Virus record (IMG/VR): IMGVR_UViG_3300030438_000300
Direction: 5' to 3' (one strand)
Source: a virus
Lineage: Duplodnaviria; Heunggongvirae; Uroviricota; Caudoviricetes
DNA length: 30,806 bases
Each line of letters starts with the position of its first letter. Position 1 is the first letter of the stretch. Positions 11 through 12,211 of the stretch are shown in pieces. The translations under genes and the position numbers were made by a program. The notes under the pieces were generated by a model. The model did not search any database. It saw only the letters and a list, made by a program, of their open reading frames with translations, and was not told where the DNA came from.

Positions 11-715
11 TTATCCGATATCGCTTCGGGAAGTTGATAACAACTTCAATTCTGACTCAAGTTCATCAACTCTTTCAGTCAGTTTCTGGATATGGTGAAT
101 CAGTGGAACAACCAGACGTTCGTACATTACACCTTCGGCAACAAGGCCATTGCTGGAAATAGCTTCCCGTGCATCATCTTCGTTAGCTGATCGCCAGTGT
201 ACAAACTGAGGGGCAATTTCTCCTACTTCCTCGGCAATCAATCCGTAGAATCCCCAGTCACGCCTGTCATTTTCGCATTGTGACCTGTACCATACAGGGC
301 GCATCCTGAAAATGAGATCGGCGTGCTCTGAATCTATCGTCTCTACTGAATGTTTATAGCGGATAGACGATGTTGACCGCAGTACAGACGAAATTGCAGG
401 GTCAGGATTAAGATAAAGGTTTGCCGCCGCTGTAGTCGTGGCCAAATTCCATAAATAAAACGCTTCACGACCTGTCAGTGGATAAAAATCTCCGCCATAA
501 CGACCACTTTCCAGATCGTTCACTTCCACTTTGTTTTTCAGCTTATTATCAACTTCAGTTTTTGTGTATCTGGAGCTGATATCCTGCTTTGCACTGGTCA
601 TATCAGTCTGAAGCGTTGATACTTTACCGTTAATTGAGGAAATATCTTCCTTCGCTTTACTGACATCTCCCTTCAGCGTGGTGATGTCTCCCGGAATTAC
701 TGTCGATGTAGCCAT
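11..715 (-). CDS. Standalone protein with tail-fibre/tailspike C-terminal intramolecular chaperone-like domain (peptidase S74-like)
   Basis: 234-aa ORF with a GAGGGAG RBS about 6 nt upstream of the ATG. The N-terminal part is coiled-coil-like. The C-terminal part contains DWGFYGLIAEEVGEIAPQFV, which resembles the conserved G(F/L)IAQEV..P..V motif of endosialidase/tail-fibre chaperone domains. An in-frame TGA lies about 30 nt upstream, so this is not the open 3' end of a longer tail-fibre gene in this frame. Confidence 0.55.
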   Translation of the reverse strand: MATSTVIPGDITTLKGDVSKAKEDISSINGKVSTLQTDMTSAKQDISSRYTKTEVDNKLKNKVEVNDLESGRYGGDFYPLTGREAFYLWNLATTTAAANLYLNPDPAISSVLRSTSSIRYKHSVETIDSEHADLIFRMRPVWYRSQCENDRRDWGFYGLIAEEVGEIAPQFVHWRSANEDDAREAISSNGLVAEGVMYERLVVPLIHHIQKLTERVDELESELKLLSTSRSDIG

Positions 716-1672: not shown

Positions 1673-1873
1673 TCAGGCAGCTTTGTTGTTCTGTTTACCA
1701 AGTTCTCTGGCAATCATTGCCGTCGTTCGTATTGCCCATTTATCGACATATTTCCCATCTTCCATTACAGGAAACATTTCTTCAGGCTTAACCATGCATT
1801 CCGATTGCAGCTTGCATCCATTGCATCGCTTGAATTGTCCACACCATTGATTTTTATCAATAGTCGTAGTCAT
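1673..1873 (-). CDS. Small Cys-rich hypothetical protein at the kil-equivalent position of the leftward early operon
   Basis: 66-aa ORF with an AGGA RBS about 9 nt upstream. Contains CGQFKRCNGCKLQSEC (C-x5-C-x2-C-x5-C). Position is equivalent to kilR, which precedes sieB in Rac. No sequence-level family assignment is possible from memory. Confidence 0.4.
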   Translation of the reverse strand: MTTTIDKNQWCGQFKRCNGCKLQSECMVKPEEMFPVMEDGKYVDKWAIRTTAMIARELGKQNNKAA

Positions 1874-2086: not shown

Positions 2087-2668
2087 ATGAACAACTCATG
2101 GTGGCAGGAACTAATGCATTTTTTCCTGCAAGGAATGACACTTAAACAGTTGATTCATATGCTAATCATCCTGATCATATTGATTATTGTTATGCCGGTA
2201 AGCGTAAAAGAATGGATAAACCTGCATAATCCAGAAATCCTTCCTCATTATTGGATGTATTACATCCTGTTGTTCTGCGTTAGCTATGTGCTTAACGGTG
2301 TTGTTAATTCCGCTTATCACGCTGTGACTGAAAGAATTGAGGTATCCGCTGCTCAGAAGCGCAAATCTAAAGAAGAAAAATATGTGCAAGATTTGTTTGA
2401 TTCGTTAACTCTTGGAGAAAGAGCGTATTTGGCATTCGCTGTAGCCGCGAATAACCAGCTAAAGACAGAAAAGGGAAGCCCTGAAGCAATCTCATTGCTC
2501 GAAAAAGGGCTTCTTATTCGGATACCTTCTGCTACTGGATATCCTGAAATCGACCGTTTTGTTATCCCGGAACGCTATAGAAATGAGTGCTACATTAGGT
2601 TTGCTGGGAAGAAAGACAGTCTTATGGATGAACTTATCGCTCAGGATAAGCATGGCAAAAACAAGTAA
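2087..2668 (+). CDS. sieB: Superinfection exclusion protein B
   Basis: 193-aa protein with hydrophobic N-terminal segments (LIHMLIILIILIIVMPV, YWMYYILLFCVSYVL) resembling lambda/Rac SieB as recalled. Orientation is opposite to the pL genes, as in Rac. The true start could be the internal Met at 2114. Confidence 0.8.
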   Translation: MNNSWWQELMHFFLQGMTLKQLIHMLIILIILIIVMPVSVKEWINLHNPEILPHYWMYYILLFCVSYVLNGVVNSAYHAVTERIEVSAAQKRKSKEEKYVQDLFDSLTLGERAYLAFAVAANNQLKTEKGSPEAISLLEKGLLIRIPSATGYPEIDRFVIPERYRNECYIRFAGKKDSLMDELIAQDKHGKNK

Positions 2669-3260: not shown

Positions 3261-3360
3261 ATGTAAGGAGAGATCAGAATTGCGTGGTTTAGTGGGTTGC
3301 ATCTATTTATTTTTCAATAAATACAATTGGTTATGTGTTTTTAGGTGGGGCGATCGTGAG

Positions 3361-3388
3361 GCAAAGAAAACCCGGCGCTGAGACCGGG
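3361..3388 (-). terminator. Intrinsic terminator immediately downstream of the RexB-like gene
   Basis: On the minus strand, stop TAA (3391-3389) is followed by hairpin CCCGGTCTCAGCGCCGGG (3388-3371) and TTTTCTTTG. Confidence 0.55.
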
Positions 3389-3880
3389 TTATTGTTGCTT
3401 GAGTTTTTCGTTATAAATCTGTTTCAGCTTTATTGGTATGAAAAAAGAGCATCCAAATGAAATTATGCTTAGCCAGCATATAATAAACTCAAGTGCCAGA
3501 CTCAGGTTGGTCACAGGCGGCTTGCTTGCTAAGATTTTACTGGTGTCTCCTGGTGGCAGCAGCATGTAGTAGAAGAATATTAAGCACAAGACTGTAAGAT
3601 AGAGGTAAAAAAGCATCATGTAACGAGAAAACCGAATTTCGAATTTCCTCTTAGTTGCATACTTTTCTGATCTTGATTTACCTTCTGTAAACGATGCTAC
3701 GTCTCCACTTGTGGTTATAACAAGTAACAGAAACCCTGTTAATATTGAAAATATATTTGCCACAAGTCCAAGCAACTCTTTGTTATATCTAACCTTATCA
3801 TGTAAATAATAAGTTAATACAAGAGAAAGGCAGATAAAAAAGATTATGGAAAAAATATAACTCCAATCTTTACCTCTCAT
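3389..3880 (-). CDS. RexB-position small integral membrane protein (4 predicted TM helices); candidate effector of a phage-exclusion system
   Basis: 163-aa ORF with four hydrophobic segments (YIFSIIFFICLSLVLTYYL, LLGLVANIFSILTGFLLLVITT, YMMLFYLYLTVLCLIFFYYMLL, LSLALEFIICWLSIISFGCSFFI). Strongly AT-rich. Same strand as cI and last gene of the cI-distal pair, as rexB is in lambda. No sequence similarity to lambda RexB recognised. Confidence 0.65.
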   Translation of the reverse strand: MRGKDWSYIFSIIFFICLSLVLTYYLHDKVRYNKELLGLVANIFSILTGFLLLVITTSGDVASFTEGKSRSEKYATKRKFEIRFSRYMMLFYLYLTVLCLIFFYYMLLPPGDTSKILASKPPVTNLSLALEFIICWLSIISFGCSFFIPIKLKQIYNEKLKQQ

Positions 3881-3917
3881 TCACACCTCCCCCTTTGGTT
3901 ATACGTACAACCCTCCA

Positions 3918-4769
3918 TTATAGTATGAAATCCTTGAAGTGCTCAAGAATTTCCTTAGCGTGTTCCGCTTTTATGGTGGTAGAGCCATACTTTCTTGTGT
4001 AATAATCTTTTTTTGTTTTGATTTCAGAGCTTTTGATCGCTTGGCCTTTTGATGTTGTGATGAAGAACTCTTCCGATAATTCATCAATGATCAGGCTTGG
4101 ATTTTTGTTCGCAATATTTAAGAGTTTTGGGTTATGTCTCTTGTCAAGAGTCAGAAGCCCATAGAAAGAGTTGTCATCATCTTGCTCTTTCTCAAATAAT
4201 CTTGACAAAGCTTCTTTAGCTTTTCCAGTGATACCTAATGATGTTGCTTTTGCCTCTTCTAGATCTTCTTTTGTTGTTTCAATACTTAGGCTGATGGAGC
4301 GTATTCCATCTTTTATTATCTTGCCAAGTGCATCTTTGTTGAGTTTCTCAGAAATATTCACATTGATATTCATGAGGCTAAATATTTTTTTTAACTTAGA
4401 TAAAGGATGAGTTCCTGATAGTTGAAAAATTGTTAGAATATTGCTTTCTGTTGCAAGTAAGAATATATGGCATTTATCATAATTATCTACATCCTGCAAA
4501 TCGTTATGGTCTCCATCTTTTGGAGTTACCGGGACCAAAGCTTTGGGCTCATAGAGTGTTATCCCAGCAAAGATTTGGTCATCGTTAACTATTAGACTTT
4601 TTATCCTTGCCCGAGTGTCGTTAGAGTACTCAAAGTCATAGTTTTGTTTGAAATTTTCGCATGTCTTCAAGACATCTACAAATGAGTATCCGTCATTACA
4701 ATCTACTTCAAATAGCGAAGTTTGTACTTTTTTGGGGAAATCTTTATTTTTTTCTTCCGAAAAATTCAT
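3918..4769 (-). CDS. RexA-position soluble protein; candidate sensor of a phage-exclusion system
   Basis: About 283-aa ORF from ATG 4769, with AAGGA RBS 6 nt upstream (the ORF track begins 2 codons earlier at TTG 4775). Lys/Asp/Glu-rich and AT-rich. No Walker, HNH or other catalytic motif recognised. Sits between cI and the 4-TM gene, as rexA does in lambda. Confidence 0.65.
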   Translation of the reverse strand: MNFSEEKNKDFPKKVQTSLFEVDCNDGYSFVDVLKTCENFKQNYDFEYSNDTRARIKSLIVNDDQIFAGITLYEPKALVPVTPKDGDHNDLQDVDNYDKCHIFLLATESNILTIFQLSGTHPLSKLKKIFSLMNINVNISEKLNKDALGKIIKDGIRSISLSIETTKEDLEEAKATSLGITGKAKEALSRLFEKEQDDDNSFYGLLTLDKRHNPKLLNIANKNPSLIIDELSEEFFITTSKGQAIKSSEIKTKKDYYTRKYGSTTIKAEHAKEILEHFKDFIL

Positions 4770-4868
4770 TGGCAATCCTTACTTTTTAATAAATGATTTT
4801 CAGTAAATTAATCAGTAAGTTGTTTAGCATAGGGTATGTGCGCTTTTGATAAATTACATGCAGTCACA

Positions 4869-5522
4869 TCACCCAAACGTCTCTTCAGGCCACTGACTAG
4901 CGATAACTTTCCCCACAACGGAACAACTCTCATTGCATGGGATCATTGGGTATTGTGGGTTTAGTGGCTGTAGAAACATCTGACCGCTATCCCTGATCAG
5001 TTTCTTGAAGGTAAACTCATCACCACCAAGTCTGGCTATACAGAAATCGCCTGGCTCAACAGCCTGCTCAGGGTCAACCAGAATTAACATCCCGTCAGGA
5101 AAGCTGGGCTTGGAACCTGTTGGTGCGGTCATTGAGTTACCTTCAACCTCAAGCCAGAATGCAGAGTCACTGGCTTTTTTGGTTGTGCTTACCAATCTCT
5201 CCGCATCGCCTTTGGTAAAGGTTCTGAGTTCTGGAGAGAACATCCCAGCCTGAACATGAGAAAAAACAGGGTACTCATATTGTTTTTTAACTGGGGCCGA
5301 TGAGTATTCGCCAACAGGTGAAAATGTCCCGTCGTGGTTGAATGATATGTTATCAATACCAAGGTATTTAAACACCACACCAATATCACTAAGAGATGGA
5401 TGACGAGATCCGCGCAACCAGTGTCCAATCCCACCCTGCGTCATACCTAGCTCTTCGGCTAACTTCTCTTGAGTTATGCCGAGCTCTTTCATTCTGGATC
5501 TAGCCAGTTCATACCATTTCAT
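4869..5522 (-). CDS. cI: CI-type prophage repressor (XRE HTH N-domain plus LexA/S24-like C-domain)
   Basis: The C-terminal ~130 aa ([27 protein letters not shown]...[15 protein letters not shown]) are near-identical to the lambda cI C-terminal domain as recalled. The N-terminal HTH ([38 protein letters not shown]) is different. Start chosen at the second Met (AGGA at 7-nt spacing); Met 5528 or the ORF-track start 5570 are alternatives. Confidence 0.9.
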
Positions 5523-5528
5523 TTTCAT

Positions 5529-5638
5529 GTCCTTATTATTACGCTTTGTACTGGAACCATCCATGCACAATGTGTATTTTTACTTGTATTCGTAAAGTAC
5601 ATATTGTATTTTTTATTCGTGTTTACTATGGAGGGCAT
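5529..5638. promoter_or_regulatory. Candidate OR operator region with divergent pRM/pR
   Basis: 110-bp AT-rich intergenic between divergent cI and cro. Contains TTACGCTTTGTACT (5539-5552) and GTAAAGTACATAT (5592-5604), both recurring upstream of N. Confidence 0.55.
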
Positions 5639-8282: not shown

Positions 8283-8723
8283 ATGAAAAAACTAACCTTT
8301 GAAATTCGATCTCCAGCACATCAGCAAAACGCTATTCACGCAGTACAGCAAATCCTTCCAGACCCAACCAAACCAATCGTAGTAACCATTCAGGAACGCA
8401 ACCGCAGCTTAGACCAAAACAGGAAGCTATGGGCCTGCTTAGGTGACGTCTCTCGTCAGGTTGAATGGCATGGTCGCTGGCTGGATGCAGAAAGCTGGAA
8501 GTGTGTGTTTACCGCAGCATTAAAGCAGCAGGATGTTGTTCCTAACCTTGCCGGGAATGGCTTTGTGGTAATAGGCCAGTCAACCAGCAGGATGCGTGTA
8601 GGCGAATTTGCGGAGCTATTAGAGCTTATACAGGCATTCGGTACAGAGCGTGGCGTTAAGTGGTCAGACGAAGCGAGACTGGCTCTGGAGTGGAAAGCGA
8701 GATGGGGAGATCGGGCTGCATGA
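8283..8723 (+). CDS. ninB: NinB (recombination mediator, Orf family)
   Basis: 146-aa product MKKLTFEIRSPAHQQNAIHAVQQILPDPTKPIVVTIQERNRSLDQNRKLWACLGDVSRQVEWHG... matches lambda NinB as recalled. GGAG-rich RBS. The ORF track has a 6-codon upstream extension. Confidence 0.9.
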   Translation: MKKLTFEIRSPAHQQNAIHAVQQILPDPTKPIVVTIQERNRSLDQNRKLWACLGDVSRQVEWHGRWLDAESWKCVFTAALKQQDVVPNLAGNGFVVIGQSTSRMRVGEFAELLELIQAFGTERGVKWSDEARLALEWKARWGDRAA

Positions 8724-9247
8724 CAATCAAATCAAATACGCCAGCACACGACAAGGACTGCTGGCAAACGCCGCTTTGGCTTTTTGATGCACTGGATATT
8801 GAGTTTGGATTCTGGCTGGATTCGGCAGCGAGCGACAAAAATGCTCTGTGTGCTCACTGGCTAACTGAGGCCGACGACGCGCTCAATTCTGAGTGGGTAA
8901 GCCACGGTGCAATCTGGAATAACCCACCGTACAGCAATATCAGGCCGTGGGTGGAAAAAGCCGCTGAGCAGTGCATACAACAGCGACAGACGGTAGTTAT
9001 GCTTGTGCCAGAGGATATGTCAGTCGGATGGTTCAGCAAGGCTCTGGAGAGTGTCGACGAAGTTCGCATTATCACTGATGGACGGATTAATTTTATCGAA
9101 CCATCGACAGGGTTGGAGAAGAAGGGAAACAGCAAAGGCTCCATGCTGCTGATTTGGCGACCGTTCATCAGTCCTCGACGGATGTTTACTACCGTATCCA
9201 AAGCGGCATTGATGGCGATCGGGCAGGGCGTCAGGAGGGCGGCATGA
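8720..9247 (+). CDS. Phage DNA N6-adenine methyltransferase (Dam-like, orphan)
   Basis: 175-aa product from [26 protein letters not shown]... with catalytic-type motif [12 protein letters not shown] overlap with the ninB stop. No cognate restriction gene is seen. Confidence 0.8.
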
Positions 9248-11128: not shown

Positions 11129-12211
11129 TTAGAACTGATACACCAGACCTACAGCGACGATGTCGTCGGTATCAATACCAGCTGTTTTGGTAAACTTACT
11201 ATCGTCAATTAAGTTGATTTTGTAATCAACAAAAGTGGACATGTTTTTATTAAAGTAGTAAGTAGCACCGACATCGACATACTTGACTAAGTCTCGGTCA
11301 CCATGAACACCAAGGTCTTTACCTTTTGACTGAAGGTAAGCAACAGATGGTCGCAGACCGAAGTCAAACTGATATTGTGCTACTGCTTCAAAGTTTTGTG
11401 CTTTGTTTGCAATATGGTTATTACCAAAAACGGTCATATTCTGAGTTTCAGAATATGTGGTAGCCAGATAGATATTGTTCGCATCATATTTCAGGCCTGC
11501 AGCCCATACTTCCGCATTTTTGCCGGAGGCATTGAATTTGCTCTTACCATAGGCGACCTGACCGTCAGTGCGATCTGATTTAGCATAGGTTGCACCCACG
11601 CCGAATCCTTCATACTCATAAGTAGTGGAGAAACCGAAACCATCACCATTGGCTTCAGTTACGTCAGTGCGGTCATTTTTACCCTGATACTGAGCAGCAA
11701 AGTTCAGGCCATCGACCAGACCAAAGAAGTCGTTGTTACGATAGGTTGCAACACCAGTGGTGCGACCAGTCATGAACACATCTGTTTGGGTCCAGGTATC
11801 GCCACCGAATTCTGGCAGAACGTCAGTCCACGCACCGATGTCGTATGCTACACCGTAGTTACGGCCGTAATCGATTGAGCCGTAGTCACCGAATTTCAGG
11901 CCTGCAAATGCAAGACGGGTTTTGTCTTTGGAGGAACCTTGAGATTCAGCGCGGTTGCCTTTGAATTCATATTCCCACTGACCGAAACCAGTCAGTTGAT
12001 CGTTGATTTGGGTTTCACCTTTGAAGCCAAGACGGGCATAAGTAGTATCACCATCATCTGCATCATTAGAGGAGAAGTAGTGCTTAGCATTAACTTTCCC
12101 GTACAGATCCAGCTTGTTACTGTCTTTATTATAAATTTCAGCTGCCTGAGCAGACATCGCCATCAGTACTGATGCAGCTACAGCAGAAATTGCCACTGTT
12201 AATTTTTTCAT
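11129..12211 (-). CDS. nmpC: Outer membrane general porin (OmpC/NmpC family), apparently intact
   Basis: 360-aa product with signal peptide [30 protein letters not shown]..., beta-barrel porin-like sequence and C-terminal ...VGLVYQF. Lies between Q and the lysis genes on the opposite strand, as nmpC does in DLP12. Confidence 0.9.

Follow-up and report, generated by a model that had tools for sequence, protein, structure and literature searches.

The window analysed here, 30,806 nucleotides of the IMG/VR virus record IMGVR_UViG_3300030438_000300 (Caudoviricetes), is a lambdoid Escherichia coli prophage that carries two genes, A and B, between the repressor gene cI and the terminator Timm, in the place of rexA and rexB. 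Taking all the evidence together, we consider it probable that A-B is a RexAB-type two-component exclusion or abortive-infection module, most likely a cryptic relative of RexAB that current annotation tools miss. RexAB is the oldest known abortive-infection system. The A-B pair is RexAB-type in architecture, predicted fold and location, with families that no current profile links to Rex; by sequence, A falls outside the RexA family and B outside the RexB family, and the link consists of fold, topology and wiring. Since lambda RexA is the best PDB match of the predicted fold of A, the pair is better regarded as a RexAB-type system, cryptic and either extremely diverged or convergent, than as something unrelated and new. 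A previous reading of the same window, made from its letters alone (hereafter, the sequence-only reading), had proposed an unrecognised RexA/RexB-like cassette in the rex slot, and the fold predicted for A supports that proposal.

The A-B pair occupies the rexA-rexB slot

From 3300 to 4900 the window shares 100% identity with E. coli S1-CAM-01-C, and phages 2G7b and PhiR11_1 show 99.7% identity across the searched stretch 3301-4900. From cI to the terminator, this region contains the following features.

4869-5564, minus strand: cI-type prophage repressor, with HTH_3 (2e-10) and Peptidase_S24 (3e-28) matches
4770-4868, minus strand: cI-A spacer of 99 nucleotides (nt), with the Shine-Dalgarno sequence TAAGGA 7 nt 5' of the ATG of A
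3918-4769, minus strand: gene A, 283 amino acids (aa) from an ATG start, soluble, acidic (isoelectric point, pI, 5.6), with a RexA/RdgC-like predicted fold
3881-3917, minus strand: A-B spacer of 37 nt, with a strong Shine-Dalgarno sequence, GGGGGAGG
3389-3880, minus strand: gene B, 163 aa, a basic (pI 9.4) protein of the inner membrane with four predicted transmembrane (TM) helices
3361-3390, minus strand: Timm, an intrinsic terminator (stem-loop at 3369-3390 followed by a T-run) common to lambda, which forms the left edge of the exchanged cassette

The ATG of cI at 5564 corresponds to the start given in the PhiR11_1 record, which labels this gene cI, and for A a TTG two codons upstream provides an alternative start, giving a product of 285 aa. 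The sequence-only reading had placed two open reading frames (ORFs) downstream of cI on the same strand, coding for a soluble protein of about 283 aa and a four-helix protein of 163 aa and closed by an intrinsic terminator; all of this was borne out, the ORFs by their positions (A at 3918-4769, B at 3389-3880), the nature of the proteins by hydropathy and by the AlphaFold2 model of B, and the terminator by its identification with lambda Timm. In particular, the terminator has an 8-bp stem with 5 GC pairs and a T-run, it overlaps the stop codon of B, and the HK542 record (Degnan) labels the same element Timm and gives it as the end of the transcripts from pRM, pRE and pLit. Gene N lies beyond it, in the pL/N region (N_peptide match, E value 6e-32).

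In the alignment with lambda, near-identity begins at the TAA stop of B and runs on through Timm, with one mismatch in the stem and one 4-base indel further downstream, so that the A-B pair replaces rexA-rexB precisely. It shares with lambda RexAB the slot to the nucleotide (from the cI stop to Timm), the strand and the gene order, a soluble protein being followed by a four-TM protein. The sizes also agree, as the sequence-only reading had noted along with the topology: 279 aa for RexA and 283 for A, 144 aa for RexB and 163 for B. The cI-A spacer (99 nt) is similar in length to the 112-nt cI-rexA spacer of lambda, and a minus-strand terminator scan found none between cI and A. The layout, without a terminator after cI and with Timm right after B, is that of lambda, in which the rex genes lie downstream of cI on the pRM transcript and are expressed in the lysogen. 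An Rfam scan of the window returned no RNA family.

In other lambdoid phages the interval from cI to Timm holds other cargo: HK542 (locus L069, 1450-2501) has genes for two hypothetical proteins there, 144 and 206 aa long, and phage ev099 a gene for a NYN-domain protein; these unrelated genes illustrate the exchange of cassettes at this slot. It has been described as a variable defence locus, which carries for instance HigBAC in another lambdoid prophage (bioRxiv 10.1101/2024.02.24.581848), in agreement with the sequence-only reading, which had called the cI-N interval a hotspot for defence cargo.

In lambda, the promoter pLIT transcribes rexB alone. A sigma-70-like site is present on the minus strand at 3917-3946, in the 3' end of A and 37 nt before the start of B (TTGAGC, 18-nt spacer, TATAAT; 10 of 12 consensus matches). 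We do not claim it as a pLIT-like promoter for B: it is a consensus match only, imposed in part by the coding sequence and by the stop codon of A, which its TATAAT overlaps, and homologous loci keep it only in part, so that it may have arisen from the coding sequence alone.

The predicted fold of A resembles that of RexA

The AlphaFold2 model of A, obtained without templates from a 14-sequence alignment, has a mean predicted local distance difference test (pLDDT) of 81.4 and a predicted template modelling (pTM) score of 0.76. In the fold search, lambda RexA was its best match in the PDB, all other matches scoring 6.8 or less; the weaker ones include CENP-N/CHL4/IML3 and the Corynebacterium glutamicum epimerase 3oh8. 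CHL4, IML3 and the same epimerase are structural neighbours of RexA according to Adams et al. (PMC11077077), who describe RexA as a globular domain in two parts (residues 1-139 and 248-279), into which a dimerisation domain of four strands and four helices (143-234) is inserted. In the model, A can be divided in the same way.

4374-4769, minus strand: A residues 1-132, with six strands and two helices, the N-terminal side of the split globular domain, compared with RexA 1-139
4053-4361, minus strand: A residues 137-239, inserted domain with four strands and four or five helices, in position and composition as the RexA dimerisation domain (143-234)
3921-4040, minus strand: A residues 244-283, strands and a long C-terminal helix that lead back into the globular domain, like RexA 248-279

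The order of the secondary structure elements is the same in the two proteins, and the domain boundaries of A (132/137/239/244) run close to those of RexA (139/143/234/248). The model thus agrees with the two-domain fold by which the RexA family is characterised, a split domain with a seven-stranded sheet, an inserted dimerisation domain of four strands and four helices and structural kinship with RdgC. Two parts were modelled with lower confidence, a loop at residues 83-95 and, in the inserted domain, residues 161-210 (pLDDT 56-73). No hydrophobic segment was found in A (Kyte-Doolittle 19-residue windows of at least 1.6).

The kinship with RdgC does not extend to membership of its family (Pfam PF04381), as A does not answer to its marks, namely a sequence match, a ring-shaped dimer with a tip domain and a chromosomal stand-alone gene. 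RdgC (PDB 2OWL) is chromosomal, forms a DNA-binding ring, has an extra tip domain and works without a membrane partner, whereas A is prophage-borne and always accompanied by B.

In the BFVD collection, Foldseek matched the A model to four uncharacterised phage proteins (E values 5e-8 to 5e-6), and lambda RexA was not listed. The uncultured Siphoviridae sp. ctylc9 (A0A8S5S8L2, A0A8S5S8H0) provides a full-length fold match to A, the second-best of full length (E value 8.5e-8, TM-score 0.57), and also the top fold match of B, a protein of 172 aa with a probability of 0.97 and 20% identity. These model-based matches hint that the A-B pair reaches beyond the family detectable by sequence.

B has the build of RexB and a conserved second TM helix

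Hydropathy, with the windows used for A, places four hydrophobic segments in B, at residues 4-30, 35-64, 84-111 and 122-152, and its AlphaFold2 model consists of four long helices. As the N terminus, central loop and C terminus together carry 14 Lys and Arg residues and the other two loops 5, the positive-inside count predicts an orientation with both termini in the cytoplasm (N-in/C-in). Small size (about 140-165 aa), four TM helices and a basic central loop make up the RexB-type build, and B has all three. With the same hydropathy script, lambda RexB gave two separate segments and a long one (80-139) of two helices' length; published predictions assign four TM helices to RexB (PMC6426596). 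Two parts of B stand out.

3707-3766, minus strand: B TM2, residues 39-58, near-invariant motif ANIFSILTGFLLLVI, from the invariant columns of the B-family alignment (A2)
3617-3706, minus strand: B central cytoplasmic loop, residues 59-88, 8 Lys/Arg, candidate contact surface for A

Most of the residues invariant in alignment A2 (39-100% identity) lie in TM2 (from N33 through the motif), at the junction of the loop with TM3 and in TM3 itself; F80, R83, F84 and Y87 stand at the end of the loop, just before TM3. The TM2 motif can be made out even in the most distant B partners, and a polar or small face (N42, S45, G49 and T56) can be read from it. It is unrelated to the HRDxLGA...YGY signature of the RexB sequences collected here, and B differs from lambda RexB also in being 19 residues longer, with a longer central loop.

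A and B form a rare and mobile pair

A homologue of B directly follows A in all 14 loci examined, including those in which the A homologue is only 22-24% identical, with gaps between the two genes of -4 to 38 nt; in one of these loci B is present although gene callers had missed it. The gene order typical of RexAB, with adjacent and co-oriented genes, the soluble protein first and the membrane protein second, and the two kept as a pair, was thus found in 14 of 14 loci. The homologues down to about 22% identity, together with a bias of the differences towards third codon positions, show that A and B are real genes and not chance ORFs: against a copy 69-71% identical in protein, the DNA differences at codon positions 1, 2 and 3 number 68, 41 and 184 in A and 38, 25 and 93 in B. 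By these patterns of substitution, both genes are under purifying selection. An IMG/VR contig (L061) whose A is 87% identical to that of the window has an A frame of only 203 aa at 4195-4806 next to an intact B, perhaps because the copy is decaying or was wrongly assembled.

The cassette is rare. Only 7 of 5,426 complete E. coli genomes contain it, while 1,060 match part of the 1.6-kb query, mostly its conserved ends only. The A family comprises 16 clusters at 90% identity among 5.8 billion proteins and only 18 representatives at 50% identity in an exhaustive profile search of 1.84 billion proteins; the B family comprises 30 clusters, and its named members are all Enterobacterales (Escherichia, Salmonella, Edwardsiella, Citrobacter, Budvicia, Morganella, Xenorhabdus, Pantoea and Serratia). 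The canonical RexA family is likewise small, with 36 clusters, all of at least 43% identity. A and B are labelled hypothetical in every record examined.

The genomic setting of the cassette varies. It lies directly downstream of a cI-type S24 repressor in E. coli, in Budvicia aquatica and in locus L011; in Pantoea vagans it is found on the opposite strand, with the Q antiterminator on one side and the holin gene on the other, in L064 after tail tube and chaperone genes, and in L063 beside an integrase gene. A-B differs in this from lambda RexAB, being found outside immunity regions too. Moreover, toxin-antitoxin genes adjoin the cassette in three distant loci.

L064, 7103-7513: YafO
L011, 5450-6038: Gp49/HigB-like toxin and helix-turn-helix (HTH) antitoxin
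L013, 2076-2549: SocA_Panacea-domain protein

Such a toxin-antitoxin neighbourhood is typical of defence islands. With regard to composition, the GC content is 34.5% in A and 34.3% in B, compared with 46.0% in cI, 49.5% in N and 48.9% in the window, and at every locus examined the A-B cassette lies 8-18 points below its surroundings; in lambda, rexA (40%) and rexB (42.5%) are also below their neighbouring genes. The sequence-only reading had taken the pair to be more AT-rich than cI and N, which the figures confirm, and to have been acquired as a moron, which finds support in the low GC content at every locus and in the several accessory slots. On the strength of these slots, the toxin-antitoxin neighbours and the uniformly low GC content, A-B behaves as autonomous defence or moron cargo. 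We take it to be an autonomous, horizontally mobile accessory module (a moron) and not a core part of the lambdoid switch.

Sequence searches and points that weigh against a Rex-type assignment

Searches against Pfam, NCBIfam and PADLOC gave no above-threshold match for A or B; among the PHROGs, A matched only phrog_23561, of unknown function, and B had no match above threshold. Even when 23 members of the wide A family were compared with Pfam and PADLOC at E values up to 1, only scattered noise appeared, with no RexA match. The hidden Markov model of the B family gave an E value of 0.69 with lambda RexB. Weak matches to CD2 and urocanase in phmmer and profile searches of PDB sequences, and a short match in a Phycisphaerae metagenome-assembled genome when genome contigs were scanned with the A1 profile, were dismissed as spurious.

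Several results count against the assignment of A-B to the RexAB type, and we gather them here. First, neither A nor B matched the Pfam models of RexA (PF15969), RexB and DUF4747 or the PADLOC models of RexA (PDLC02339) and RexB (PDLC02340); the PADLOC negative is meaningful, since these models recognise lambda's own RexA (9e-110) and RexB (8.6e-61). Second, profile-profile comparison with hhalign, in which the A family was represented by a narrow alignment (A1) or by a wide one (A4, effective number of sequences 4.9, widened with matches from the search of 1.84 billion proteins), gave probabilities of 0.07-0.44% against RexA alignments of 20-39 sequences, the largest of which takes in members only 23-30% identical to lambda RexA; the B family gave 0.4% against 16 RexB sequences. 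The absence of similarity to RexA and RexB remarked upon in the sequence-only reading is thus confirmed by the Pfam and PADLOC searches and by profile-profile probabilities below 1%. Third, A can be superposed on RexA over only about half of its length, and the evidence for the fold depends on a predicted model and on this half-protein superposition. Fourth, A is acidic (pI 5.6) and RexA, a homodimer with non-specific DNA binding, is basic (pI 8.6); DNA binding by A is therefore not assured and may not be conserved. Fifth, Foldseek found nothing significant for B in BFVD (best E value 0.05), with no RexB-named protein among the 50 matches listed; a 165-aa Sbash protein, not confirmed to be gp31, appears at rank 33 (TM-score 0.49, probability 0.90, E value 0.8). 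Finally, in the literature on PhiR11_1, 2G7b and RexA- or RexB-like E. coli prophage proteins we found no study of the A-B pair. As regards the fifth point, small four-helix membrane proteins are structurally generic, and the comparison of B models is uninformative.

The wide A family has no invariant residue and only four nearly invariant columns, and A4 proved too diverse to be used in a pattern scan. We considered the motif N96-x-D98-x-x-H101 (NxDxxH) of A, conserved among its close relatives, as catalytic and rejected this, as distant family members have lost it.

Comparison with described Rex-like systems

Only five Rex-like systems have been described so far, and in four of them the membrane protein is the effector (PMC12894663, 2026). 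For RexABpp of Pseudomonas putida prophage P1, known to us by its description (PMC12894663), HHpred links RexApp (PP_5643) to RexA with a probability of 98%, whereas A is not found by hhalign; A is thus the more diverged of the two. The actinobacteriophage pairs Sbash gp30/gp31, CarolAnn gp44/gp43 and Butters gp30/gp31 likewise consist of a soluble and a four-TM protein expressed from a prophage, in hosts of another phylum, and in Butters the roles of the soluble and the membrane protein are reversed. The RexA-like protein of Sbash carries a DUF4747 motif also present in RexA, different from A, which has no Pfam match (PMC6426596). The topology of B, with four TM helices and a predicted N-in/C-in orientation, agrees with that described for RexB, PP_5644 and Sbash gp31. 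In the RexB-like Sbash gp31, the substitutions R70A and D73A in the cytoplasmic loop abolish defence (PMC6426596), and this loop is equivalent to the central loop of B.

Proposed mechanism and alternative explanations

In a RexAB-type system, phages are excluded through membrane depolarisation or growth arrest, for which both genes are required. We infer the exclusion function of A-B by analogy with these systems. In the lysogen, the layout suggests that the pRM transcript of cI would read through A and B and stop at Timm. A, a cytoplasmic protein with the predicted RexA/RdgC two-domain fold and probably a dimer, would sense the infecting phage, its putative trigger being a phage protein or a DNA-protein intermediate of replication or recombination. 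Once activated, A would engage the cytoplasmic loop and TM2 of B, and B would depolarise or permeabilise the membrane, as in lambda RexAB, Sbash, CarolAnn and RexABpp, leading to growth arrest and to the abortion of the infection. Analogous steps form the model put forward for lambda RexAB and have in part been demonstrated for Sbash, CarolAnn and RexABpp (PMC12894663).

A-B appears to retain the sensor fold and the effector topology without recognisable shared sequence, in the same lambdoid slot. For this reason, its comparison with RexAB could show which features are essential to a Rex system, such as the dimeric clamp, the loop contact and the TM2 face. Since two carriers are sequenced, PhiR11_1 (host, according to its record, E. 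coli K-12 MG1655) and 2G7b, such a mechanistic comparison would be directly feasible. The A-B pair would also show that Rex-type systems are missed by annotation of the PADLOC and Pfam kind.

It is possible to hypothesize, although we do so tentatively, that A-B represents a separate and very old Rex-type lineage, with a sensor of RexA/RdgC fold that has no sequence resemblance to RexA and perhaps no basic surface, and an effector of separate origin built around the invariant, polar-faced TM2. An acidic A may in that case sense a phage protein rather than DNA. If this were true, a RexA-fold sensor with a four-TM effector would constitute a broad and currently invisible class of defence, and the slot between cI and Timm would swap versions that are functionally equivalent and mutually unrecognisable.

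Other explanations are less likely than either of these. The pair might not serve defence in the first place, A being a DNA-binding modulator of RdgC/RexA fold that acts on recombination, RecA activity or the lysogenic-lytic switch, with B as an accessory. A second, RexB-independent role has been reported for lambda RexA. However, the acidity of A does not favour such a role, A never occurs without its membrane partner (14 of 14 loci), unlike RdgC, and the pair is also present far from any repressor (between Q and holin, in the tail-gene region and beside an integrase), positions that speak against a function bound to the cI/Cro switch; we regard this explanation as unlikely. We also give little credence to the view that A-B is an unrelated membrane moron, such as a superinfection exclusion protein that keeps DNA from entering, a toxin in the membrane paired with a soluble antitoxin or a factor in host fitness, in which the likeness of A to RexA would reflect convergence or a modelling artefact. 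The lack of sequence homology to any Rex component, the superposition of about half of A alone, the generic nature of small four-helix membrane proteins and the frequent proximity of toxin-antitoxin modules would all fit it, and a point that speaks for a RexAB-type description instead is the position of RexA as the best PDB match of the A model. Finally, it is improbable that the roles are reversed as in Butters gp30/gp31, with A as a toxic or antiviral effector that B sequesters or neutralises until infection: the anatomy would be the same as in a RexAB-type module, one described Rex-like system works in this way (PMC12894663) and the strict co-occurrence of A and B also fits a toxin and its neutraliser, but the wide A family offers four near-invariant columns and no invariant residue, NxDxxH being lost in its distant members, the strongest conserved motif is in TM2 of B, as one would expect of an effector more than of a passive anchor, and the membrane protein is the effector in four of the five described systems.

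Other features of the window

Outside the cI-Timm interval, the following genes were noted.

11-715, minus strand: C-terminal fragment of a tail fibre, with a Peptidase_S74 chaperone domain
1673-1873, minus strand: ral
2087-2668, plus strand: superinfection-exclusion gene sieB (Pfam SieB, 1.4e-25; phrog_1301)
8660-9247, plus strand: ORF of 195 aa from a GTG start
11129-12211, minus strand: OmpC-like porin gene (Porin_1, E value 1.9e-151)

An IS1 element (InsA 870-1145, InsB 1064-1567) is inserted between the tail-fibre fragment and ral. In relatives with the same immunity region, the genes cIII-kil-gam-bet-exo...xis lie to the left of ral, and the junction of tail fibre, IS1 and ral occurs in no complete E. 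coli genome; on these grounds, IS1 seems to have brought about a deletion or rearrangement of the early-left operon, leaving a prophage that is probably defective. Furthermore, sieB lies about 700 nt from the A-B cassette, so that the immunity region carries two putative exclusion functions. The equivalent of the porin gene in S1-CAM-01-C is located between the Q antiterminator and the lysis genes, another slot for accessory genes, and the ORF at 8660-9247 has the position that a phage N-6-adenine DNA methyltransferase occupies in the nin region of PhiR11_1 and S1-CAM-01-C.

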